Positions 1,393 to 13,465 of a stretch of 64,000 nucleotides of DNA are shown piece by piece. Source of the stretch: Pseudomonadota bacterium (GTDB taxonomy: Bacteria; Myxococcota_A; UBA9042); the NCBI GenBank assembly GCA_005792545.1, contig SXRM01000037.1, forward strand, positions 1,706 to 65,705. Direction: 5' to 3'. The notes below the pieces were generated by a model. It did not search any database. It was not told where the DNA came from and worked only from the letters and a program-made list of their open reading frames with translations. The translations under genes were made by a program, and so were the position numbers. Numbering within the stretch: position 1 is the stretch's first letter; each line of letters opens with the position of its first letter.

Positions 1393-3084
1393 TTGGCAAA
1401 TACCAAAGCCGCGCGCGTTGCCGATTCGGGCGGCGCATCCCTGCAACTGCTGCCGCTTGGTGGCGTCGGCCGTATCGGCGCCAATGCCATGCTGCTTGGC
1501 TGCGGCGACGATTGGCTGCTGCTCGACTGCGGCGTGACCTTTCCCGAGCCAGAGCTGACTGGCGTCGAGTTGGTGCTGCCGTCGATGGCCGTGCTGGGGT
1601 CGTTCGCCAGCAAGATCCGCGCCATCGTGCTCACCCACGGCCACGAGGACCACATTGGCGCAGTGCCTTACGCGTTGCAGGTGCTGCAGGTGCCCGTGTA
1701 TGCGACCCGCTTCACGGCTGGGCTCGTTCAGCACAAGCTCCGCGAGCACGGCCTGGCCGACCAGGTCACGCTGCATGTCGTTGCGCCCAAGACGCGTGTG
1801 CGGATCGGGCCGTTTGACATCGGTTTTCTGCGGGTGACGCACTCGATTCCGGACTGCGTCTCGCTGGCGATTCGGACGCCGCTTGGCAACGTACTGTTTA
1901 CCGGTGACTTCAAGATCGAAGCCGGATTGCGCGACGGCGAGGTGTTCGACGAGGCCGGCTTTCGCGCGTTCGGCGACGAAGGCGTGGACCTGATGATGGC
2001 CGACTCGACCAATGCCGAGGTGCCCGGCTGGTCGGGCAGCGAGGCTGCCGTTGGCAAGCACCTGGCCGAGGTCTTCAGTGGCATCCGCGGCCGCATCCTA
2101 GTCGGCCTGTTCGCTTCCAACATCTATCGCCTACACAGCATCATCGATGCCGCGCGCGTGAACGGCCGCTATTGCGTGTTGCTCGGCAAGTCGCTCGAGC
2201 GCTACACGACGGCGGCCAACGCCTACACGAGCATGCCGTTCGACTCCGAGGACATCATCGGCGTCAAGGACCTGCACCGCTACGACGACGACGAGGTTGT
2301 CATCATCTGCACAGGGTCGCAGGCTGAACCGCGCGCAGCCTTGTCACGTGTGGCCAATGGCACCCACCCGGAGGTCGCAGTCAAACAGGGCGATACGGTG
2401 GTGCTTTCGGCGCGGCAGATTCCGGGCAACGAGCGCCGCATCCACGCGATGCTCAACGACTTCGCTCGCGGCGGTGCGCACGTCATCTACACGCGAACGG
2501 ACCGCGAGATTCACGCCAGCGGCCATGCCTATCAGGAAGAGCTGCGGACGTTGCTGACTTGGGTGCGGCCGCGGCGCTTCATCCCGGTGCACGGCGAGTA
2601 TACTTTCTTGCAGCGGCACGCCGAGCTTGCGCAAGAGTGCGGCGTCGAGCGCACGCTGATCATCGAGAACGGCCAGACCGTCACCCTGGGCACGGATGGT
2701 ATGCGCGTGAGTGACGTGCGCACGCTCTCGCCCTGGTATGCCGATGGCCTGGTCTACGGCGACGCCGAGTCGTTGCAGTTGGTGGCCCGGCAGCAACTGG
2801 GCTGGCACGGTGCGGTAGCCGTGCAACTTGACTTGGACCGCAGCGACGGCGTCGTCACGGGTCGGGCGAGAGCGCTGCCGTGGGGCGTTCAACACGAGCA
2901 GGGCGAATTAGCCAAAGAAATCGAGACAACGCTGCAGCGCTGGTCGAGCGGCCTGAACGCCAAGATGCCGCTATCTGCCGTCGAAGGCCAGATCCAGTCG
3001 GTGGTGCGCAAGGTGGTCAAACGCTACAGCCAACGCAAGCCCGTCGTGCTGTCGTTCGTGCGCTGGTCCGACGACGTGGAGTAG
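1393..3084 (+). CDS. rnj: ribonuclease J
   Basis: PLGGVGRIGAN, THGHEDHIG metallo-beta-lactamase motif, THSIPD, TGDFK, HASGHA, PVHGE; TTG start. Confidence 0.93.
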   Translation: MANTKAARVADSGGASLQLLPLGGVGRIGANAMLLGCGDDWLLLDCGVTFPEPELTGVELVLPSMAVLGSFASKIRAIVLTHGHEDHIGAVPYALQVLQVPVYATRFTAGLVQHKLREHGLADQVTLHVVAPKTRVRIGPFDIGFLRVTHSIPDCVSLAIRTPLGNVLFTGDFKIEAGLRDGEVFDEAGFRAFGDEGVDLMMADSTNAEVPGWSGSEAAVGKHLAEVFSGIRGRILVGLFASNIYRLHSIIDAARVNGRYCVLLGKSLERYTTAANAYTSMPFDSEDIIGVKDLHRYDDDEVVIICTGSQAEPRAALSRVANGTHPEVAVKQGDTVVLSARQIPGNERRIHAMLNDFARGGAHVIYTRTDREIHASGHAYQEELRTLLTWVRPRRFIPVHGEYTFLQRHAELAQECGVERTLIIENGQTVTLGTDGMRVSDVRTLSPWYADGLVYGDAESLQLVARQQLGWHGAVAVQLDLDRSDGVVTGRARALPWGVQHEQGELAKEIETTLQRWSSGLNAKMPLSAVEGQIQSVVRKVVKRYSQRKPVVLSFVRWSDDVE

Positions 3085-3087
3085 CCG

Positions 3088-3738
3088 ATGCCTGACCGAC
3101 CTGGTGCACCATCCAAGCCGGCGTCGCAGCGTGGTCGCACGCTACGGGTCAATGCGGCGCAGTTCGTGGCGGCAGTCAATAAGGTCGGCGAGGTGCCGCA
3201 TGGGCCGCCTGAGGTCGCGTTCTGCGGTCGCAGCAACGTCGGCAAGTCGTCGCTTATCAACGCCATGTGCAACCAGAACGCACTTGCGCGCACCAGCAAG
3301 ACTCCAGGGCGCACGCAGTCGGTGGTGCTGTTCGACGCGACGCTGTCGAGCGGCCAGGTGCTGCGCCTGGTCGACCTGCCGGGCTTCGGACATGCGGAAG
3401 TCAGCAAGACCATGCTCGCGGCGTTCGCGGAGATGATCCAGTACTACCTGCTGGCGTCGCAGCAGCTCAAGCTCGTGGTCATCTTGCAAGACTGCCGCCG
3501 CGACCGCGACGACGACGCCATCGGTTTTGCGGGCTGGCTGCGCGACAACCACGTCGCCTATACCGTCGTCGCTACCAAGTCGGACGCCGTACCCGCCACC
3601 CGCCGCGGCGCCGTCTGCCAGCGCCTTCAGACCGAGTTTCGGCTCAAGCAACCGCCGCTGGCTGTCAGCGCACGCGATCGATCGGGCATCGACGACCTGG
3701 TCGTGCGCGTGCGCAACGCGGCGTTTCCCAAGCCGTGA
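3088..3738 (+). CDS. engB: ribosome biogenesis GTPase YihA/YsxC
   Basis: GRSNVGKSS (G1), SKTPGRT, DLPGFG (G3), TKSD (G4). Confidence 0.92.
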   Translation: MPDRPGAPSKPASQRGRTLRVNAAQFVAAVNKVGEVPHGPPEVAFCGRSNVGKSSLINAMCNQNALARTSKTPGRTQSVVLFDATLSSGQVLRLVDLPGFGHAEVSKTMLAAFAEMIQYYLLASQQLKLVVILQDCRRDRDDDAIGFAGWLRDNHVAYTVVATKSDAVPATRRGAVCQRLQTEFRLKQPPLAVSARDRSGIDDLVVRVRNAAFPKP

Positions 3739-4187
3739 GCGCGCCCGTGGCGGTGCGGTCTTGCACGGTGGCCGACGTCGCGACGCTTGCAGAGTTGGAA
3801 GCGCGGTGCTTTGCCGACGCGTGGAGCACAGGCAGCGTCCACAACGAAGTCAGCGCCGCGCATGGTCGGGCTTGGCTAGCGACAGACGACGGTGAGCCGG
3901 TGGGCTACCTGCTGGCGTGGCTGGTCGGCGATGAAGCGCAGATCAATCGGGTGGGCGTGATTGCCGAACAGCGCGGCCGTGGGCTGGGGCTTGAACTGGT
4001 GCGCGTTTGCCTGGCTGCCGTTGCCGAGCAGGGTGCGCAGTCTGCGCTCCTCGAAGTCCGCGCCGACAATGCGCCCGCGCTGGCCGTCTATCGCCGTTGC
4101 GGCTTTGCGCAAATCGGTCGACGCAAGGCGTATTACCCGGACGGCGGCGATGCGCTGGTGTTGCGCGTGACGCTGACAGCGGACTGA
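3735..4187 (+). CDS. rimI: RimI-like ribosomal-protein N-acetyltransferase (GNAT)
   Basis: GTGA overlap with engB stop; QRGRGLG acetyl-CoA motif, LEVRADN, YRRCGF, RKAYYPDGGDA. Confidence 0.85.
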   Translation: MSAPVAVRSCTVADVATLAELEARCFADAWSTGSVHNEVSAAHGRAWLATDDGEPVGYLLAWLVGDEAQINRVGVIAEQRGRGLGLELVRVCLAAVAEQGAQSALLEVRADNAPALAVYRRCGFAQIGRRKAYYPDGGDALVLRVTLTAD

Positions 4188-4599
4188 CAGCGTCACGTCG
4201 GCATACGCCGCGGGGCGATCCACGGCAGGCGGCTGCGACCCCGTGGATCAACACCTTGAACACGCGTGAACCCGCGCAATGCCCGCGCCGCGGCAGCAAA
4301 GCCCGCACAACCACGACGACGTTGTTGTGGGTTTGTCATGCAGCCATCACAGGCGACCTGAGTCCAGTTCCGCTTTGGCGAAGTCGGCGTAACCTGCGCC
4401 TGCCCCGTCCGGCGGTGGTGGCAACCGGCCACCCAGGGCCGGCGGTTCCATAGGCCCGGCGCTGCGACCGAACCCCGCAGAGGCCGGCTGAGACCCGCAC
4501 CCCAGGCGCTGCTCGATCGCGACCTGCCGTCCTGCCTCAGCTCCGTTTCTGCCCGGCCCTCCCTCGCCTCGCAGGCCAAGCGACGAAGGAGAAGCCGCG

Positions 4600-7500
4600 A
4601 TGAAACCACGACCTTGTTCACATTCCCTCACTGCCGCGCTTGCGGTGGCTGGCCTTGCGCTAGCCGCATGTACTGCCGACCCCGGCGCCGCCGGCAAGGA
4701 CGGCAAGAACGGCACCATCTGCACCATCAAAGACAACGCCGACGGCAAGAAGGCGCTGACGTGTGACGACGGCACCAGCATCGTCATCGCCGACGGCAAG
4801 TCGGGCACCGACGGCAAGGGCTGCACGCTCACCGACGACGCCAACGGCAAGAAAATAACCTGTGGCGACGGCACGACCGTCACCTTGACCTCAGGCAAGG
4901 ACGGGACGGCCGGCAAGGACGGGGCGGCGGGCGTCAACGGCAAGTCGTGCACGGTCAAGGACAACGGCAATGGCACCAAGACCATCAACTGCGAAGACGG
5001 CACCACCGTCACCGTCGCCGATGGCAAGCCAGGCGTCAACGGCCAAAGCTGCACCATCAAAGACAACGGCGATGGCACCAAGGCCATCAACTGCCCGGGC
5101 GACGCCACGGTCATCGTCAGCGACGGCAAGGCCGGCAAAGACGGCACCAACGGCAAGTCGTGCACGGTCAAAGACAACAACGACGGCACCAAGACCATCA
5201 GCTGCGAAGACGGCACCAGCGTGACGGTCTCGGACGGCAAGGTCGGCGCTGCGGGCAAAGACGGCGGGACCGGCAAAGACGGCGCCGCGGGCGCCAATGG
5301 CAAGTCTTGCACCGTCAAGGACAACGGCAACGGCACCAAGACCATCAGCTGCGAAGACGGCACCAGCGTCGTCGTCGCCGACGGCAAGGTCGGCCCGGCC
5401 GGCGTCTCTGGCGCCAGCACCGGCGTCAACGTCGAAGTCAAGAGTGTTTCGACGGTCGCCACCGACCCCATCAAGGTCGTGTTCACGCTCAAGGACGACA
5501 AGGGCTACCCGATCGACGTGTGCGGCAACTACTCGCTAAACACGGTCATCACGCCGCGCTTCAGCCTGTCGGTCGTCAGCAAAGACAGTGCGGGCAACAC
5601 CCTGCCCTACACGGTGCTGACGCGGTCGGCGTCGACCACCGGGCCGACCGTCGCCAACCCGACATCGCTCAGCCCGCTTGGCAGCAACTGCAAACCGGCG
5701 GTAACGACCGCTGGCGCATCGACCGGCCACGGCACGTTCGCAGAGAACGCTCCGGGCGAGTACACCTACACCTTCCCGACTGCCGACACCGCGGCTGGCC
5801 CGGTCAAGGTTGGCTACGATGCCGCCAAGATGGATTTGACCCACGTGCTGTGGATCCAAGTCTCGCGGCAAACCGACGTCAACTACACGCAGAACACGGT
5901 GACCTTCAAAGCCACCAACAAGGAATATGCGTTCGTGCCGAGCGGCAAGGCCACGCCGGTGCGCCGCGAGTTGGTCGCGACCGCGACATGCAACAACTGC
6001 CACCGCGGCTTTGCGCCCGAGGGCACGACCTCGGGGTCGTTCCACGGCGCGGGCCGCGTCGAGGCGCCGTACTGCAACGTGTGCCACAACGACCGCAAAG
6101 TCTCGGCGACCGGTGCGGACAATGAAGTGGCCAATACGGGCGTCTACATTCACCGCCTGCACAGCTCGGACCACCTCAACCCGGCCAACCTGTACTATGG
6201 GATCAAGTTCTCGTTCCCGCAGGACATTCGTAACTGCAAGGCCTGCCACGCGGGTTCGCTGCAGCAAGACCAGTACAAGACCCGGCCCAACCGGCAGGCC
6301 TGCACTTCGTGCCACGACTACGTCGATCTCAAGACCAACACGCTGCCCAAGTGTGCAAAGCCGCGCAAGGCCGACGCCAATGGCGTCCTGGAGCCATGCC
6401 AGCACACCGCAGGTCCGCAAGCCGACACCGCCTGCGTCAACTGCCACACTCCGCAGCAGATCGACGACAGCCACCAGACCGTTGTGCCGCCGGACCCGAA
6501 CAACATCTACGCCAAGCCAACGGGCGGCAACACCAACACCAACGCCGGCTATCTGACCGCCGCCGGCTTCGTGCCGTCGGGTGCCGATGTCATCACCTAC
6601 GACCTCAAAGAAGTGACGACCTGGCTGGACGGCAGCGTGCGCAGGCCGCAAATGACCTTCAAGTTCAAGAAGAACGGCACAGACGTGGTGTTCCAGACCT
6701 ACCAGGCCGGCAGCGTGACCGAGCTCATGGCTGGCTTTGTCGGATCGCCGAGCGCCTACTTCGTGTTCGCGGTGCCCCAAGACGGCATCAAGATGCCAGC
6801 CGACTTCAACGCCAGCGCCAGTGGCTACATCAAGAACGTGTGGAACGGCACCACCAGTTCGATTACGGTCGGCACGGTGACGCAAGGCAAACAGGGCACC
6901 ACCGACTGCACTGCCAGCGCGCCGTGCACCTGCGCCGCCGCGCCCAACAACTGCGTGGTGCCGCTTGGTAGCCTGACGCTCGATGCCACCACCGGTTACT
7001 ACACCATCAAGCTGTTCACGGCGCAGGTGCCGGCCAACGCGACCATGCTGCAAGGTGGTCTGGGCTACACCTACAACCTATCGAGTGCCCCACCGCTGAC
7101 GCAGATCAACCTGCCGAAGTACCCGTACGATGCCGCAACCAAGATTGGCGGCCTGGTGGTGCCACCGCCCAACGTGTGGAAGCCCGCATTGACCAAGGCG
7201 GCAACCACCGGCACCATGACGACCGGCTATCAGGGCACGCAACTGTGCGCCGACAAGGCCTGTGACTGCACAACCGCAGCGCCCTGCAACGACTGGGCCG
7301 CCCGTCGCCAGATCGTCGACAACAAGCTGTGTCTGAACTGCCACAAGCAGCTGGGCGCCGCACCGAGCTTCCACGGCGGTCAGCGCAACGACGGCCAGTC
7401 CTGCAGCTGGTGCCACACGCCGAACCGCACCAGCACCGGCTGGTCGGCCAATTCCAAGGACTTCGTGCACGCCGTGCACGGCGCCCGCAAGCGCGTCGTT

Positions 7501-8004
7501 CCGTTCACCTGGCAGGCTTTCTCGGCGACGCAGAACTTTGGCGAAGTCGAGTTCCCGGGCCCCATCAGCAACTGCACGGCCTGCCACGTAGCTGGCGCGT
7601 TCGACTACAGCGGCAACGCGGTCAAGGCGGCCTTGCCAAACATGCTGCCCAGCACAGTGGCGCAGGGCAAGTACAACAGCGACCCATTGGCGAACAGCAC
7701 GTACTTCCGCCTGTCGCCCTATGTGATCGCGGACAACGTGTACAGCTACGGCAGCGGCTTCTCGTTCTCGTCGGCAACCGGCTTGGCCACTGAGGCCACC
7801 GACACCACACTGGTCAAGTCGCCAATTACCGCGACCTGTAGCGCGTGCCACGACAACGACCCGGCGCTCGACCACATGGAGGCCGCCGGCGGCAAGTTCT
7901 ACGCCACCCGCGCGCAGTACAAGGCGCCCGGCGCGACCAAAGAACAGTGCTTGCTGTGCCACGGCCCCGGCAAGATCGCGGCCATTGCCACCGTGCACAA
8001 GTAG
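4600..8004 (+). CDS. OmcA/MtrC-family decahaem c-type cytochrome lipoprotein with N-terminal repeat stalk
   Basis: Lipobox LAAC (Cys24); ten CxxCH motifs in 5+5 arrangement (CNNCH, CNVCH, CKACH, CTSCH, CVNCH / CLNCH, CSWCH, CTACH, CSACH, CLLCH) separated by haem-free domains; RBS AAGGAG. Confidence 0.9.
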   Translation: MKPRPCSHSLTAALAVAGLALAACTADPGAAGKDGKNGTICTIKDNADGKKALTCDDGTSIVIADGKSGTDGKGCTLTDDANGKKITCGDGTTVTLTSGKDGTAGKDGAAGVNGKSCTVKDNGNGTKTINCEDGTTVTVADGKPGVNGQSCTIKDNGDGTKAINCPGDATVIVSDGKAGKDGTNGKSCTVKDNNDGTKTISCEDGTSVTVSDGKVGAAGKDGGTGKDGAAGANGKSCTVKDNGNGTKTISCEDGTSVVVADGKVGPAGVSGASTGVNVEVKSVSTVATDPIKVVFTLKDDKGYPIDVCGNYSLNTVITPRFSLSVVSKDSAGNTLPYTVLTRSASTTGPTVANPTSLSPLGSNCKPAVTTAGASTGHGTFAENAPGEYTYTFPTADTAAGPVKVGYDAAKMDLTHVLWIQVSRQTDVNYTQNTVTFKATNKEYAFVPSGKATPVRRELVATATCNNCHRGFAPEGTTSGSFHGAGRVEAPYCNVCHNDRKVSATGADNEVANTGVYIHRLHSSDHLNPANLYYGIKFSFPQDIRNCKACHAGSLQQDQYKTRPNRQACTSCHDYVDLKTNTLPKCAKPRKADANGVLEPCQHTAGPQADTACVNCHTPQQIDDSHQTVVPPDPNNIYAKPTGGNTNTNAGYLTAAGFVPSGADVITYDLKEVTTWLDGSVRRPQMTFKFKKNGTDVVFQTYQAGSVTELMAGFVGSPSAYFVFAVPQDGIKMPADFNASASGYIKNVWNGTTSSITVGTVTQGKQGTTDCTASAPCTCAAAPNNCVVPLGSLTLDATTGYYTIKLFTAQVPANATMLQGGLGYTYNLSSAPPLTQINLPKYPYDAATKIGGLVVPPPNVWKPALTKAATTGTMTTGYQGTQLCADKACDCTTAAPCNDWAARRQIVDNKLCLNCHKQLGAAPSFHGGQRNDGQSCSWCHTPNRTSTGWSANSKDFVHAVHGARKRVVPFTWQAFSATQNFGEVEFPGPISNCTACHVAGAFDYSGNAVKAALPNMLPSTVAQGKYNSDPLANSTYFRLSPYVIADNVYSYGSGFSFSSATGLATEATDTTLVKSPITATCSACHDNDPALDHMEAAGGKFYATRAQYKAPGATKEQCLLCHGPGKIAAIATVHK
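4684..5417 (+). repeat. six intragenic tandem modules C-T-(V/I)-K-D-N-x-x-G-T-K-T-I-x-C-x-D-G-T separated by 3-8 Gly-X-Y triplets
   Basis: Repeats visible in protein and DNA (ggcaagtcgtgcacggtcaa... recurs near 4940, 5152, 5300). Confidence 0.92.
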
Positions 8005-8120
8005 GTGCTGCGTCTCGGCGGAGGAGTTGGTCTCGGCCAGCCCCTCCGCCGGGCGGTCCATCGCCGGCAATCCCCTGACAAATCAGGAAGCTGAACAAAG
8101 CCCCCCTCGGTTCAGGCGGA

Positions 8121-8558
8121 CTAGTTGTTCTTGGCGCCGTCGGCGATCCAGGCCTTTACGGCGTCGATCTTGTACTGGTCCAGCCGCGCACCGGGGGGCA
8201 TGCCGCCCTTGGCCTTGCCAAATGGGTGGTCGAGCACGATCCACAGCACGCTTTTGTCTGGCTTGCCGGGCTCGACACGGTTGAGCGGCTTGCCGGCGTC
8301 GTCGATCTCGCCGGATTCCTTGCCAACGAGGTTGGCAAAGCTCGTGGCCTTGTCTTTGAGGCTCAAGTTGCCGGCGCCAGTGCCCTCGCCGTGGCAAGCC
8401 GAGTTGGTGCACGACTTTGCGAAGACCTCGGTCTGGAGCACGCTGAGCTTGGGCTCCAGGGCCGGCGTCGATGATGCGGAGTCGCAAGCGCCAGCCAACA
8501 GGCAAGCAACCGGCAGGCAGACCCGCCAGGTTCGCGATGAGTTAACACTACTTGGCAT
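8121..8558 (-). CDS. monohaem cytochrome c-like lipoprotein (CX4CH)
   Basis: Lipobox AGAC; SCTNSACHG; candidate Met ligand in GGMPP; C-terminal AVKAWIADGA helix typical of class I cytochromes c. Confidence 0.7.
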   Translation of the reverse strand: MPSSVNSSRTWRVCLPVACLLAGACDSASSTPALEPKLSVLQTEVFAKSCTNSACHGEGTGAGNLSLKDKATSFANLVGKESGEIDDAGKPLNRVEPGKPDKSVLWIVLDHPFGKAKGGMPPGARLDQYKIDAVKAWIADGAKNN

Positions 8559-9108
8559 CGGTCAGACTCGGAGCATCTGCGGCGGAGGCAGCATCGGCGT
8601 TGCCATCGCTTGTGGCGCCAGCGTCGGCCGGCTTGGCTTCGCCGACGCAGGCGATGAGCACGCAGCCCTTGCCCGCGCTGGGATTGGCCGGGTCGCCGGC
8701 ACACCGCGCCCCAGCGCCACATTGCGCATCGGCAACGCAAGGCATCGTGCAGAACGCTTCTTTGCCGGCCGTAAACGCAGCGGTACACATCACGGCGGCC
8801 AGGTCGTCCTTGCCGGCCTTGCCGTCGTTGGCCTTGCATTCTCCGCCCTTGGCGGTACACGGCATGCCGACGCCGTAGGGTTGGTCGCACCAACGCTCCT
8901 GACAGGCTTCCAGGGGCGGTGTCGGGTGCTTGCACGCCGCCTTGGCGCCATCGGCGAGCGTGCCGCCATCGCTGCTTGACGCGGAATCACTCGCAGCGTC
9001 TGTGGCGACTGCCGTTGGTTCCTTGGCCGCGCACGCCGCAATGAGCACCGCAAGGACCAGTGCTCCGCCGCGGGCTCTGCCCAGGCCTTCGAAACGAGCG
9101 ACGCACAT
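8548..9108 (-). CDS. Cys-rich lipoprotein of unknown function
   Basis: GGAGG RBS 7 nt upstream; lipobox IAAC; Cys-rich core; stop overlaps the next gene by 11 nt. Confidence 0.7.
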   Translation of the reverse strand: MCVARFEGLGRARGGALVLAVLIAACAAKEPTAVATDAASDSASSSDGGTLADGAKAACKHPTPPLEACQERWCDQPYGVGMPCTAKGGECKANDGKAGKDDLAAVMCTAAFTAGKEAFCTMPCVADAQCGAGARCAGDPANPSAGKGCVLIACVGEAKPADAGATSDGNADAASAADAPSLTDAK

Positions 9109-9139
9109 GGTTGAACCTCCAGACGGTCGCGGCTGCGAA

Positions 9140-10126
9140 CTAGTCGTTATTGCAGATGATGACGCCTTCTTTGAGCGCCGGGTAGTAATACGACACTGTC
9201 GTGCACATCTCTTTGGGAAAGAACATTTGCTTGCCGCTGGTGTTGTTCCAGGTGCAGGTCACTGTGATTTCGTCGCCTGCTTTGAGGTCGAGCGACGTTG
9301 CGCCCACACCAAAGACCTCAACCGGCCCGGCGTCGCGGAATTCAGGCTTCCACTGGGCCACGTTGAACATGGTCTTGGACGGATAGGCCTTGTCAAGCGG
9401 CCGCGTGTGTTCGACTTTGATCTTGGTCCCCATCTCGTGCATGTGGCCCAAGGTGGCGAGCAACTTGATGTCGGCCGGCACTTTGCACTTCGTGCTGCGG
9501 GTGGTCTCGCCTTTGGCGGCGACGTCGACCAGGCTGTCGTTCAAGATGAAGTAGCTGACTTCGGTCAAGCTGGCCTCGGTCGCGAACTCGAGGCGGGCTA
9601 CATCTTGAATCTCAATGGTCTTGGCGCCGTAGTTGACATAATGCGACTGAAACACCGGCCGCATCCCTTTGGCCAGCCGCACGGCGTAGCCCTCTTGGAG
9701 CAAGGACTTGTCGCTGTGCGCATCCGGATCCGGCAGTACCAACGGCTGCAGGTTGACCATCTGCGCGACGCTGGTGCAGTCAAAGGTCTGACCGGGCTTG
9801 TAGTTGCCACCCTTGTCTTGCAAGGCCACGACGTGGTGACCCATCGTGCCCTGGAAGCCGCGAAACTTGCGGATCATATAGTCTTTTTCGGGCACCCACT
9901 CGGGCACCCAGCACAGCATTTTCTCTTCGCCGGGGGCGACCGTCAGCTTGGGCCCGACGAACTGCATGCCTTTGTCCGCGCTGGGCGCGGCGGGCACGTT
10001 CTTGGCTTTCTGATCCACGACAGCAGGTGCGTCGGGGGCGGCACTCTCGCACGACATCGCAACCGCAGCAGTCAGCACGGCGGCGCAGGCGAGCGCGGGG
10101 ACACGATTGGGCTTGAAAAAGCGCAT
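9140..10126 (-). CDS. copper type II monooxygenase (PHM/DBH-like) lipoprotein
   Basis: All six Cu ligands visible: GHHVV (H,H), QSHY (H), GHMHEMG (HxH), KEMC (M); lipobox AMSC. Confidence 0.85.
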   Translation of the reverse strand: MRFFKPNRVPALACAAVLTAAVAMSCESAAPDAPAVVDQKAKNVPAAPSADKGMQFVGPKLTVAPGEEKMLCWVPEWVPEKDYMIRKFRGFQGTMGHHVVALQDKGGNYKPGQTFDCTSVAQMVNLQPLVLPDPDAHSDKSLLQEGYAVRLAKGMRPVFQSHYVNYGAKTIEIQDVARLEFATEASLTEVSYFILNDSLVDVAAKGETTRSTKCKVPADIKLLATLGHMHEMGTKIKVEHTRPLDKAYPSKTMFNVAQWKPEFRDAGPVEVFGVGATSLDLKAGDEITVTCTWNNTSGKQMFFPKEMCTTVSYYYPALKEGVIICNND

Positions 10127-10158
10127 GGTTGCGACCTCGATGGGCGGAAGGGACGCGG

Positions 10159-10190
10159 ACTATACCAATTTGAGGCGCTTGCGCAAGCGC
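10159..10190 (-). promoter_or_regulatory. candidate promoter of the monooxygenase operon overlapped by a perfect 16 bp palindrome
   Basis: Minus strand TTGCGC (10186-10181)-N16-TATAGT (10164-10159); GCGCTTGCGCAAGCGC at 10175-10190. Confidence 0.5.
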
Positions 10191-10318
10191 AAAAATCGCA
10201 AGAATGACCGCAGTGTGCCGTTTGCGGGGCGGGCGATGGGGCGCTTGGGTTGCGGTCTCAGCGATTGCAAACAGCTCATCGCTCGAGCTAGACTGCGGCT
10301 GCGTCTGCCGTTCGGCGT

Positions 10319-11629
10319 GTGGTGCTGGCCTTGGTGTTCACGACCGCACAAATCGGCCACTTGCTGCACTACCCGCTGGCCGTGGCCCTGACGTGCGCGT
10401 CGCTGGGGCTGGCAGTTGCACGACCCGCCCTGGCGCAAGGTGCTGGGCCAGCCGCAGATGCCACGCCTACGAGCGCTGCCGCCGACGCCACCCCGGCAGG
10501 CCTGAGCGAAGCTGAACTCAAGGCGCTGGCCGAGGGCGCCGCTGCCGATGCCAGTTCCGCGCCCGCCGCCCCGGCGACGCCTCAGGCCACCAGCAGCGCG
10601 GCGTTGTCCAACCCAGCGCTGTCGCTGATTCTCGACACGGCGCTGGCGGGCTACAGCGAAGGCAAGCCGCTGCTTACCGGCGGCCACGACCCCAAGCGCA
10701 ACGGCTTCAACCTGCAGCAGCTGGAGCTGCACGCCGAGTCGTCGGTGGACCCGTACCTGACGCTGCAAGCCAACATCGTGTTTGCCCAGTTTGGCGTAGA
10801 AGTCGAAGAGATGTACGCAGAATCGCTGGCGTTGCCCGGGGGGCTCCAGCTCAAGGCCGGACAATTCTTGAATGCTTTTGGCCGAATCAACCCGACGCAC
10901 CTACACAGCTGGAGCTTTGCTGACCAGCCGCTGATGATTGGCAAGTTCTTTGGCAGCGAAGGCAGCCGCGGGCTGGGGGCGCAACTGGGGTGGCTGCTGC
11001 CGCTGCCGTGGTACGTCGAAATCAAAGCGGCGGCGACCGACGCCGTCGGGGCTTGCTGTGCGCGGTCGCTGCTTGGGGGCAACGACCTGCCGGTGCGCTC
11101 GCCGGCCGATGTGGCCTACACGGGCAATCTCAAGACCTTCCTGCCCCTCGACGAAGACTGGTCGCTGACGTTGTCGACCTCAGGCCAGGCGGGGCCGAAC
11201 GCGAGCGGCAACGGCAACCGCAGCGAGATCCTGGGCGGCGACCTGTACCTGCGTTACCGGCCAGTCGCGGACCCCGAGCGCCGCCACCTGTCGCTGCAGG
11301 TGGAGCACGCGGTGCGGGCGCGGCAAGTGCCGGGGCGCTCGTTGGTGGACCACGCCGGCTATGCGCAGCTGGTCGGCGCCTTGGCGCTGCGTTGGGAATT
11401 GGGCGTGCGCACCGAATGGACCACCGGCGTTGCGGGAGATCCGCTGGACCCCGACTGGACCACCAATCGCCAGCGCCATGCGGCGCAGCTGACTTTTTAC
11501 CCTTCACACTTCTCGCGGGTCCGCGTGCAGGCCACACTCGACCGACCGACGTGGCGGTCAGAGCCGATCTGGGGCGCGGTAGTGGCGTTGGAAGCGTTGA
11601 TTGGCGCGCACGGCTCGCACGGGTTTTAG
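10319..11629 (+). CDS. outer-membrane beta-barrel of the zinc-regulated receptor/porin type
   Basis: Signal peptide; GGHDPKRNGFNLQQLEL, FGRINPTHLHSW, alternating beta-strand pattern, C-terminal GAHGSHGF; exact start uncertain. Confidence 0.72.
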   Translation: MVLALVFTTAQIGHLLHYPLAVALTCASLGLAVARPALAQGAGPAADATPTSAAADATPAGLSEAELKALAEGAAADASSAPAAPATPQATSSAALSNPALSLILDTALAGYSEGKPLLTGGHDPKRNGFNLQQLELHAESSVDPYLTLQANIVFAQFGVEVEEMYAESLALPGGLQLKAGQFLNAFGRINPTHLHSWSFADQPLMIGKFFGSEGSRGLGAQLGWLLPLPWYVEIKAAATDAVGACCARSLLGGNDLPVRSPADVAYTGNLKTFLPLDEDWSLTLSTSGQAGPNASGNGNRSEILGGDLYLRYRPVADPERRHLSLQVEHAVRARQVPGRSLVDHAGYAQLVGALALRWELGVRTEWTTGVAGDPLDPDWTTNRQRHAAQLTFYPSHFSRVRVQATLDRPTWRSEPIWGAVVALEALIGAHGSHGF

Positions 11630-11775: not shown

Positions 11776-12693
11776 ATGATACGCACAGTGACCCTGTTTG
11801 CGCTGGGCTTGGCAGCGACCATGCTGGCCGTGCCGGCTCGTGCGTTGCAAGTCGTGGCGACGCTGCCGAGCCTGGCGACCCTGGCGCGCGAGGTCGCCGG
11901 GCCGCACGCAACGGTCGAGTGCCTGTTGAGTCCGCGGCAGGATCCGCACTACGCCGATGCGCGGCCCAACCTGATCCTGTCGCTCAACCGCGCGGATCTG
12001 CTGGTCGTCAATGGCCTGGAGTTGGAGGTCGGCTGGCTGCCGGGCCTGGTGCGGCAGGCGCGCAATCCCAAGATCCAGACCGGCACGCCCGGCTATTTCG
12101 ACGCCTCGCTGCACGTGCTGCGCCTGGCGGTACCTGGGCGCGTGGATCGCGCGATGGGCGACATCCACCCGGGCGGCAATCCGCATTTTCACTGGGATCC
12201 GCGCGCGGCGGCGCTGGTGGCAGTAGCGCTCGGCAAGTCGCTGGGCGCGCTGGATCCGGCGCACGCGGCGGATTACACCAAGAATGCCGCGGTGATGTCG
12301 GCCCGCTTCAAGGCGCTGGCCCACGAGTGGACGCAGAAATTCGCGGCGTTGCCCGAGGCCGAGCGCAAGCTGGTCGTGTACCACGATTCGCTGGTGTACC
12401 TGGTCGACTGGTTGGGCTTAAAGCAGGTCATTACGGTCGAGCCCCGGCCGGGCATTCCGCCCGACCCGGGGCACCTGGCCAAGGTGGTGGGCACGGTGCG
12501 CACGACGGGCGCCAAAGCGCTGGCACAAGAGGAGTATTACCCGCGCGGGGCTTCCGATCAGGTCGCCAAGTTGACGGGCTTGCGGATGGCGATCGTACCG
12601 GGTGGCGCCAACTTCGGCAGTGGTCAGCGCTTTGACGACTACGTGCGCGGGCTGGCAAAGACGCTGTATGAGGCGCTGCATGGCGCACCGTAG
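11776..12693 (+). CDS. Zn/Mn-type ABC substrate-binding protein (ZnuA/TroA family)
   Basis: QDPHYADARP, DIHPGGNPHFHWDP, VYHDSLVY metal-site motifs; signal peptide; RBS AGGAG. Confidence 0.88.
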   Translation: MIRTVTLFALGLAATMLAVPARALQVVATLPSLATLAREVAGPHATVECLLSPRQDPHYADARPNLILSLNRADLLVVNGLELEVGWLPGLVRQARNPKIQTGTPGYFDASLHVLRLAVPGRVDRAMGDIHPGGNPHFHWDPRAAALVAVALGKSLGALDPAHAADYTKNAAVMSARFKALAHEWTQKFAALPEAERKLVVYHDSLVYLVDWLGLKQVITVEPRPGIPPDPGHLAKVVGTVRTTGAKALAQEEYYPRGASDQVAKLTGLRMAIVPGGANFGSGQRFDDYVRGLAKTLYEALHGAP

Positions 12694-13465
12694 CCTCGTC
12701 GCCGCGGCGCTGCTGGTGTGCCTGTGGCCCGCGTGCGCTTGGGAGCCCGGCAACCCCTGGGGCGTGCTGCAGCTCGGCGTGCAGGTGCGCGCGACCGTTG
12801 CCGCTGACCGGTTGTTGCCCGACGGGCGCTTCAAGACCGCAAGCGAATACTTGTGGCGCTACGAGCACTTTGACGTTGAGCTGGACGCCGCGCGCGTCGC
12901 AGTTGTGCCGGACACCACCAAGCTGTCGTTCGATCCCGCCAAACCGCCAAGCGGATACACGCTGTGCCACGGTGGTCATTGTCACGCCACTGACGGCAGG
13001 CTGGTGGACTACGCAACCGTGGAGGCCGGGTTGCTGGGTGAAACTGGTTCGGGGCCGCTGTTGCTGCCGCTGGACGTGACCGCGGACGCAGCGCTGCCAT
13101 CGGCAGTTGTGGCGCCTGCGGGACCGGTCGACCTGCCGCTGGGGACCGTCGCCAACGTTCAGGTGTCGTGGCGTCGTGCGGTCGTCAAGGCGCGCGTGTG
13201 GGACGGCTCGCCCAAAGGCGACCGGCTGCCCAAAGGCGGCATCGCCGTGCTGTGGCCGTTGCCGGCCGGGTCGGTGGCGGCACAAGTCCGCGCCAAGGTC
13301 GGGCCGCACGAGCCGCTGCAGTTGCGGCTGCACATGGCCGTCGAAGTCCCGGCAAGCTGGCTGGACAACGTGGATGTTGCTGCAGGCCCTGCGGATACCA
13401 AGGCCTTGGAATCTGCGCTGTTGCATGCCGCCAGTGCCAGCGTGACCGTGAACCGCCGCGACTGA
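12680..13465 (+). CDS. exported protein with CHGGHCH metal-binding motif
   Basis: ATG overlaps SBP end; hydrophobic N-terminus ending WPAC; YTLCHGGHCHATDG. Confidence 0.65.
   Translation: MAHRSLVAAALLVCLWPACAWEPGNPWGVLQLGVQVRATVAADRLLPDGRFKTASEYLWRYEHFDVELDAARVAVVPDTTKLSFDPAKPPSGYTLCHGGHCHATDGRLVDYATVEAGLLGETGSGPLLLPLDVTADAALPSAVVAPAGPVDLPLGTVANVQVSWRRAVVKARVWDGSPKGDRLPKGGIAVLWPLPAGSVAAQVRAKVGPHEPLQLRLHMAVEVPASWLDNVDVAAGPADTKALESALLHAASASVTVNRRD

Follow-up and report, generated by a model that had tools for sequence, protein, structure and literature searches.

Organization of the locus

The subject of this work is a group of three genes at positions 8121–10126 of a 64,000-nt stretch of contig SXRM01000037.1 (this entire stretch is referred to below as the window). 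The window comes from a metagenome-assembled genome (MAG) of 7.0 Mb that is 78% complete, belongs to an uncultured freshwater myxobacterium and is designated here G000. The nearest relatives of this genome carry the annotation of Myxococcales or Deltaproteobacteria MAGs, and 'DeepCast_65m' forms part of the isolate and contig names of one of them.

All three open reading frames (ORFs) lie on the minus strand, and each encodes a predicted lipoprotein. The first (9140–10126) codes for a 328-aa protein that resembles the two-copper monooxygenases PHM and DBH, matches the Pfam domain PF03712 and has an invariant set of copper ligands. It is followed by a gene for a 186-aa Cys-rich protein with 12 invariant Cys residues (8548–9108) and by a gene for a predicted 145-aa monohaem c-type cytochrome that has a FoxE/PSCyt1-like domain and a CX4CH haem motif (8121–8558). 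The spacer between the PHM-like gene and the Cys-rich gene is 31 nt long, the latter gene is preceded by a GGAGG ribosome-binding site located 10 nt upstream, and the ATG of the cytochrome gene overlaps the stop codon of the Cys-rich gene (an overlap of 11 nt).

In all three proteins a basic n-region at the N-terminus leads into a hydrophobic stretch followed by a Cys whose surroundings, on manual comparison, fit the classical lipobox pattern: VAMSC26 in the PHM-like protein, LIAAC26 in the Cys-rich protein and LAGAC25 in the cytochrome. The signal peptide of the cytochrome is slightly atypical because its residues 1–7 include neither Lys nor Arg. The lipobox Cys is invariant in 56 homologues of the PHM-like protein and in 59 homologues in which the three parts are fused (see below), is found in 11 of the 13 sequences of the Cys-rich set (one of the two exceptions is truncated at its N-terminus) and is conserved in at least 90% of the cytochromes. 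The initial annotation of this DNA had described three closely spaced, co-directional lipobox genes at this site, and their coordinates, strand and lipobox Cys residues were all borne out.

Conservation and fusion of the three genes

The gene order PHM-like protein, Cys-rich protein, cytochrome c recurs in nine other loci, whose identity to the window ranges from 37 to 77%. The closest are those in G003 (77%) and G010 (72%), followed by four loci at 44–48% (G006, G007, G013 and G033) and by three metagenome or MAG loci, L041 (44%), L045 (39%) and L043 (37%). The Cys-rich gene always comes after the PHM-like gene in orthologous loci. In G022, G041, G048 and L046 the cytochrome gene is a divergently transcribed neighbour. 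Overall, the cytochrome is adjacent to the PHM-like protein or fused to it in 16 of the 19 PHM-like loci from other genomes, those of G028/G032 and G046 being the exceptions. In one orthologous locus (L025, G033:C29, positions 9737–10697) the PHM-like gene is split into two frames near residue 120 by a frameshift or an assembly error; the downstream Cys-rich and cytochrome genes are intact there.

In a further six loci (L013–L018) the three parts are encoded in one reading frame in the order cytochrome c, PHM-like core, Cys-rich domain, giving a lipoprotein of 538–557 aa with ∼26% identity. Single-chain proteins such as that of L013 match the three window proteins in parallel, with identities of ∼26%, 31% and 40%. 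A database search for such three-part fusions returned 69 clusters, 59 of which could be aligned over their full length; these include a protein of the cultured Nannocystis sp. SCPEA4 (P0072). Across the 59 fused sequences the invariant residues comprise the lipobox C17, the haem-binding C43...C48-H49, the M118-P119 pair and H228-H229, H290, H358, H360 and M430. Two-part fusions of a CX4CH cytochrome c to a PHM-like protein were found as well (P0156 and P0224). The single-chain proteins (e.g. L013, P0072) have the same three modules as the window locus, including the invariant CX4CH, the Met-Pro pair, six copper ligands and 10 shared Cys residues, but in them a single polypeptide begins with the cytochrome, whereas the window encodes three separate lipoproteins in the order PHM-like, Cys-rich, cytochrome.

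The conserved synteny and the fusions bear directly on an earlier proposal that the genes form a self-contained module in which the cytochrome serves as the electron donor. Its first half stands: co-occurrence in the nine other loci and fusion in at least 59 clusters support the view that the three genes make up a self-contained, co-conserved module with the cytochrome as the dedicated redox partner of the copper protein. Its second half, the passage of electrons from haem to copper, is retained here as an inferred direction.

The PHM/DBH-like copper protein

A family profile was built from 56 homologues that show 27–81% identity to the PHM-like protein of the window, with the latter as the first sequence. 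When compared with rat PHM, this profile aligned over both domains (PHM chain residues 29–291) with an E-value of 3e-14; human DBH was matched with an E-value of 8.7e-5. At the level of the single protein, the Pfam C-terminal domain PF03712 (Cu2_monoox_C) scored 26.7 bits against a cut-off of 23. The PF03712 score and the profile E-value together argue that the relationship to PHM is one of homology and not of chance.

The residues predicted to bind the two copper ions are H97 and H98 (nt 9838–9833) together with H162 (nt 9643–9641) for the CuH site, and H228 and H230 (nt 9445–9437, in the order H228-M-H230) together with M307 (nt 9208–9206, within an EMC motif) for the CuM site. In the alignment of the 56 homologues all six are invariant, as are C26, M229 and C308. 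In the profile alignment, H97, H98, H162, H228, H230 and M307 are in register with H107, H108, H172, H242, H244 and M314 of PHM, which upholds the earlier observation that the first protein keeps all six CuH and CuM ligands. The surrounding motifs follow the same register: GHH corresponds to H107/H108, QSHY to Q170/H172, GHMH to H242/H244 and EMC to M314/C315. The Gln that precedes the third CuH His is therefore also retained (Q160, equivalent to Q170 of PHM), as is the EMC motif.

An AlphaFold2 model of the fused L013 protein (genome G047) had a predicted local distance difference test score (pLDDT) of 88.1 and a predicted template-modelling score of 0.74. It consists of an alpha-helical N-terminal domain followed by a beta-sandwich core. 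In a Foldseek search this core matched PHM (1PHM/3MLL) with an E-value of 2.6e-15 and template-modelling scores of 0.72–0.73 over 287–289 columns (∼289 of 304 residues), at 15–18% sequence identity. The second-best fold match was DBH (E-value 1.7e-12), and there was no bacterial structure among the fold matches listed for this model.

The substrate-binding residues of PHM are a different matter. In PHM (structures 1OPM and 1SDW) the carboxylate and the backbone of the peptidyl-Gly substrate are held by R240, N316 and Y318. The window protein has L226, T309 and V311 at the aligned positions, and the family consensus in these regions reads LLGHMH and EMCTxV. Because all three residues are replaced, the product of the first gene appears to be a two-copper protein of the PHM/DBH fold with a binding site that is not that of the peptidylglycine hydroxylase.

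The cytochrome

The haem motif of the cytochrome is C50-TNSA-C55-H56 (nt 8411–8391), and its probable axial ligand is Met120 (nt 8201–8199), part of an M120-P121 pair. C50, C55, H56, M120, P121, W137 and G141 are invariant in 14 stand-alone partners or fused domains. The canonical CXXCH motif is absent from the window cytochrome, and the CX4CH form is invariant in 13 partners or domains. It appears to be an insertion variant of CXXCH, since the CGGCH of a related fused domain aligns to it with a two-residue gap. Haem sites of the CX4CH type are known in the cytochrome c3 of Desulfovibrio, and the Pfam family PF09698 models such sites in Geobacter proteins. The genome G000 carries two cytochrome c assembly genes of the CcmF/CcsA type (PF01578). 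The window cytochrome probably binds haem.

Pfam domain PSCyt1 matched the window cytochrome with 18.7 bits, below the cut-off of 22, and the match to Cytochrome_CBB3 was also sub-threshold. The weak PSCyt1 matches are nevertheless consistent, because 10 of the 14 family members have them (best E-value 1.1e-4). The profile of the cytochrome family matched the dihaem protein FoxE of phototrophic Fe(II) oxidation (5MAB) with an E-value of 2e-8, with the CH of the haem motif, the MPPG motif and the C-terminal WI..GA helix aligned. The two share an alpha-helical haem c domain with the signature C..CH, GDP..S, MPPG and WI..GA; the window cytochrome differs in having one haem motif instead of two, CX4CH instead of CXXCH, and a lipid anchor. 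The haems of FoxE have Met as distal ligand (PMC10654088). Relatedness to FoxE further strengthens the case for the cytochrome as a dedicated redox partner. Among the genomes G000–G044, there is also a second stand-alone family of the FoxE/PSCyt1-like domain, in open frames of ∼190–310 aa.

The Cys-rich protein

In the Cys-rich protein the lipobox Cys26 is followed by a disordered linker, which leads to a core of ∼100 aa and an acidic tail. The 12 Cys residues that follow the lipobox (C59 to C154) are invariant in 13 homologues; in the fused enzymes, 10 of these Cys have aligned counterparts within the last ∼80 residues. The two also have in common the motif G-x-G...C-T-x-x-G-x-E-C; conservation between the split protein and the fused domain is confined to the Cys residues and a few Gly and Glu residues. 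The split protein has one Cys pair (CQERWC) beyond those of the fused domain, and its His61 and Met82 are invariant only among the split homologues, the fused domain showing no conservation of either. By this alignment the Cys-rich protein corresponds, as a separate chain, to the domain with which the fused enzymes end.

Searches of Pfam and NCBIfam gave no match for the Cys-rich protein. In an AlphaFold2 model its core (residues 60–160) reached pLDDT values of 79–94, and a search of the PDB with this core gave no fold match at E < 1. Several knottin-like mini-proteins were among the insignificant top matches. The protein had been suggested to act as a copper chaperone or a scaffold. We rejected the first of these roles: neither a fold nor a family of known chaperones (HMA/CopZ, PCuAC, CopC, CusF or Sco) was found, what is conserved is an even number of Cys residues (12), and the fused domain does not retain H61 or M82. 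The second agrees with the homology to the fused C-terminal domain, and the Cys-rich protein is best read as a disulfide-stabilized structural domain or subunit of the enzyme.

Wider family

A search with the family profile among representatives of clusters formed at 50% identity gave 7,494 sequences at E ≤ 1e-3, 2,981 at E ≤ 1e-10 and 535 at E ≤ 1e-30. At least one copy of the PHM-like protein is encoded in 39 of 61 related genomes, with up to seven copies per genome. The genome of the window itself has further paralogues. One of them (L034, positions 2117–3850, minus strand, of the region G000:C7:11500–17500) is a single frame of ∼560 aa with a CTQCH cytochrome domain, a PHM-like core and a Cys-rich tail; the core has the motifs VHHV, QVHY, AHMHQLG and DEMC, and the tail is long and unlike the others. 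The third PHM-like paralogue (L033, positions 2499–3875, minus strand, of the region G000:C189:51500–57500) has all four corresponding motifs (SHHL, EAHY, GHTHALG and KEMC); no cytochrome c gene was found within ∼2.5 kb of it.

The homologues are named in databases as 'hypothetical protein', with a single 'monooxygenase'. Full-text literature and PDB searches found no studied bacterial member of the PHM-like family, and bacterial homologues go unmentioned in two reviews of PHM (PMC6529398 and PMC12164859). In the module described here, a protein of the PHM/DBH fold is accompanied by a cytochrome c dedicated to it and by a Cys-rich subunit of a novel kind.

Genomic neighbourhood

The region upstream of the PHM-like gene is a 192-bp divergent intergenic region (10127–10318) that separates it from the gene for a 436-aa protein (orf436) and is the likely location of the operon promoter. 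It contains a perfect 16-bp palindrome, GCGCTTGCGCAAGCGC, at 10175–10190, which occurs only once in the window and overlaps a weak promoter-like site on the minus strand (TTGCGC-16 nt-TATAGT). This palindrome could be the operator of a local regulator; it was not found in the other loci compared. Scans of the locus for consensus promoters and terminators, and a scan against Rfam, gave nothing usable.

Transcribed divergently from the operon are orf436, a gene for a ZnuA-like binding protein and a gene for a 287-aa protein (orf287). The orf287 product (12602–13465, downstream of the ZnuA-like gene) has a CHGGHCH motif and a lipobox-like start. On the other side, the gene for a decahaem lipoprotein of the OmcA/MtrC type (4600–8004, plus strand) converges on the operon.

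All-against-all clustering of the ORFs from 13 loci revealed nothing conserved besides the module itself and antisense shadow ORFs. The immediate neighbours differ from genome to genome and include an HD protein, a molybdopterin oxidoreductase with a multihaem cytochrome, a MopE-repeat protein, an aromatic amino-acid lyase, a histidine kinase, a PPDK-like protein, a VTC protein, a DUF3857 protein, a two-component pair and the Nuo operon. The ZnuA/orf436/orf287 cluster was considered as a conserved partner and rejected, as it was found beside none of the other modules.

The decahaem gene fared similarly. The initial annotation had noted correctly that it converges on the operon and had offered its product as a possible upstream electron source. 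We looked for it elsewhere and found it next to the module only in the closest relative, G003, and a search for decahaem proteins of the OmcA/MtrC type (TIGR03507) found none anywhere in G010, G022, G047 or G039, four genomes that bear the module or the fusion. As a neighbour the decahaem gene is confined to its lineage, and the role of its product as an obligatory or conserved upstream donor was rejected on this distribution.

Several loci have neighbours that deserve a brief description. In the 72%-identical locus of G010 (L022, G010:C2), which retains a flanking thiolase gene, positions 4235–7585 hold, divergent from the module, the gene for a 910-aa P1B ATPase that resembles CopA and contains two HMA domains, and after it the gene for a DUF3347 protein. 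It is possible that this ATPase provides copper for the enzyme; the G000 orthologue is located on contig C60, away from the module. Metal-related neighbours thus comprise ZnuA in the window, CopA and the DUF3347 protein in G010 and the MopE-repeat protein in G033, a recurring but differing set that is suggestive and not systematic. In L023 (G006:C71) a gene for a 293-aa multihaem cytochrome with c7/NapB/MtrC-like matches is convergent on the cytochrome gene of the module and is followed by a molybdopterin oxidoreductase gene (positions 4890–8232); this multihaem cytochrome abuts the module but differs from the decahaem protein of the window. A DUF3857 lipoprotein of ∼670 aa is encoded divergently to the module in L041 (positions 2721–4721) and in L043 (positions 2698–4758), with 59% identity between the two. 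The gene pair directly upstream of the module in L045 encodes a HisKA_3/LuxR two-component system.

Comparison with known systems

The closest characterized relative is PHM, the catalytic core of PAM (1PHM, 1OPM, 1SDW, 3MLL; PF01082 plus PF03712). Both have two beta-sandwich domains with the His-His plus His ligands of CuH and the His-x-His plus Met ligands of CuM in the same order and register. Unlike PHM, the window form is a bacterial lipoprotein that has no PAL partner and has a cytochrome c and a disulfide-rich domain encoded alongside it or, in the fused forms, attached to it. Animal PHM and DBH need ascorbate, which is recycled by cytochrome b561.

DBH, tyramine beta-hydroxylase and MOXD1 (4ZEL) share the catalytic core, and in DBH, as in the bacterial proteins, accessory domains have been added to it. 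The accessory parts themselves are different: a class-I-like haem c domain and a Cys-rich knot in bacteria, as opposed to the DOMON and dimerization domains of DBH. The sequence evidence gives no sign of phenylethylamine substrates for the bacterial enzymes.

Copper enzymes with a built-in or dedicated haem donor are known from cytochrome-fused NirK nitrite reductases and from cellobiose dehydrogenase, whose cytochrome domain feeds lytic polysaccharide monooxygenases (LPMOs). These systems resemble the module as proposed below, in that a haem domain gives single electrons to an extracytoplasmic copper site. The analogy is one of operation only: their folds and chemistry are unrelated, and they have no homology to the catalytic subunit described here.

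Proposed function and alternative explanations

We consider it likely that the three genes encode subunits of one exported, membrane-anchored copper oxygenase complex that is fed by the cytochrome, activates O2 and acts on a substrate other than peptidylglycine. Part of the best explanation is that the window operon encodes, in separate pieces, an enzyme produced by many Myxococcota as one continuous chain. According to this scheme, the three proteins would be exported through the Sec pathway and lipidated, after which the cytochrome c maturation system of the genome would attach haem to the CX4CH motif. The Cys-rich protein would fold as a disulfide-knotted domain and pack against the catalytic subunit, and the three lipoproteins would assemble on the periplasmic face of the membrane as the equivalent of the single-chain enzyme. 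In the catalytic subunit, the PHM/DBH fold would present the CuH site (H97, H98, H162) and the CuM site (H228, H230, M307). The His/Met cytochrome would draw single electrons from the periplasmic pool and reduce the copper sites, thereby doing what ascorbate and cytochrome b561 do for the animal enzymes. CuM would then activate O2 and hydroxylate a C–H bond of an envelope or extracellular substrate distinct from peptidyl-glycine. The broader proposition, that the operon is the split form of a large and unrecognized class of ascorbate-independent monooxygenases of the PHM/DBH type that are wired to the periplasmic electron pool by their own CX4CH cytochrome, have a novel disulfide-knotted accessory domain and act on an envelope or extracellular substrate other than peptidylglycine, appears to us evenly balanced.

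Several observations weigh against this interpretation. The Pfam N-domain PF01082 gave no match to the window PHM-like protein at E ≤ 0.1, and a PDB search with the single PHM-like sequence returned only noise, so that the homology to PHM is visible only at the level of profiles and folds. Both the presence of haem on CX4CH and the loading of copper in the bacterial members are assumptions. Some PHM-like paralogues (those of G028/G032 and G046 and the one on G000:C189) have no cytochrome gene nearby, and hence the cytochrome is not universal in the wider family. Conversely, the FoxE/PSCyt1-like domain is also found in unrelated large open frames (860–1150 aa) of the relatives G000–G044; it looks like a general periplasmic redox module that has been attached to several enzymes, and the direction in which the cytochrome module transfers electrons cannot be read from its sequence.

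This last point leads to the main rival explanation, in which electrons flow the opposite way: the copper protein would oxidize Fe(II), Mn(II), Cu(I) or an organic reductant, and the cytochrome would hand the electrons on, either to multihaem cytochromes or to the respiratory chain, in the manner of FoxE in iron oxidation. FoxE, which oxidizes Fe(II), is the nearest relative of the cytochrome with a solved structure, and this speaks for such a scheme, as do the multihaem genes convergent to the module in G000 and G003 (decahaem) and in G006 (c7/NapB-like, with a molybdopterin oxidoreductase) and the metal-handling genes that flank it in several genomes (the ZnuA cluster, and the CopA-like ATPase with the DUF3347 protein in G010). 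These neighbours, however, vary from genome to genome, and the four module-bearing genomes mentioned above lack any OmcA/MtrC decahaem. Reverse flow also fits poorly with the strict retention of the O2-activating ligand set of PHM and DBH, the His-His-Met of CuM and the tri-His of CuH, and we regard it as improbable. A somewhat fainter prospect is a substrate-free oxidase that only reduces O2 to H2O2 or water, for scavenging, signalling or peroxide production. The lack of a conserved substrate-related gene beside the module and the loss of the PHM substrate-binding residues would agree with it. In PHM and DBH, however, O2 reduction is tightly coupled to substrate hydroxylation, and the presence of up to seven paralogues per genome and ∼7,500 representatives fits diversified substrates better than a single housekeeping reaction.

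Two explanations remain. A true bacterial peptidylglycine alpha-hydroxylating monooxygenase, making C-terminally amidated peptides, would account for PHM being the best match in both sequence and fold. Yet that match amounts to only 15–18% identity, the residues equivalent to R240, N316 and Y318 are L226, T309 and V311, and no gene for a PAL/NHL-type lyase or a precursor peptide is conserved near the module, all of which makes this assignment very unlikely. Hardly credible at all, in our opinion, is the notion that the genes encode non-catalytic copper-binding or copper-storage lipoproteins, or that they are three functionally unrelated neighbours. Metal-handling genes are indeed sometimes found near the module; nonetheless, a storage role does not sit well with the exact retention of the catalytic ligand set, and unrelated neighbours would not be expected to occur in one chain in at least 59 clusters or to keep their order down to 37% identity. 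The cytochrome-fed oxygenase stays our preferred reading of the locus.

Implications

PHM and DBH are the textbook 'non-coupled binuclear' copper enzymes, in which the path of electrons to and across the two distant copper ions is debated. To our knowledge, work on enzymes of this type has been confined to animals and has used ascorbate as the donor. If the proposed function is correct, the bacterial branch would supply a protein-bound haem as a defined source of single electrons, with which the transfer between the coppers could be studied kinetically and structurally. Because the parts are separate proteins in the window, transfer from haem to CuH to CuM could be reconstituted and titrated, an experiment that the animal enzymes, driven by ascorbate, do not permit; the arrangement as three split genes would be the best suited for this purpose. 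The window locus is of value for these separate parts and because the ideas of a decahaem donor and of a copper chaperone gave negative results here.

The fusion of all three parts in other bacteria suggests a class of enzymes that is fed by a cytochrome instead of vitamin C. The animal relatives make amidated hormones and noradrenaline. Should the interpretation hold, the bacterial proteins would constitute a new family of extracytoplasmic C–H hydroxylases, with ∼7,500 representatives at 50% identity, and would provide an evolutionary root for the hormone-processing enzymes of animals.

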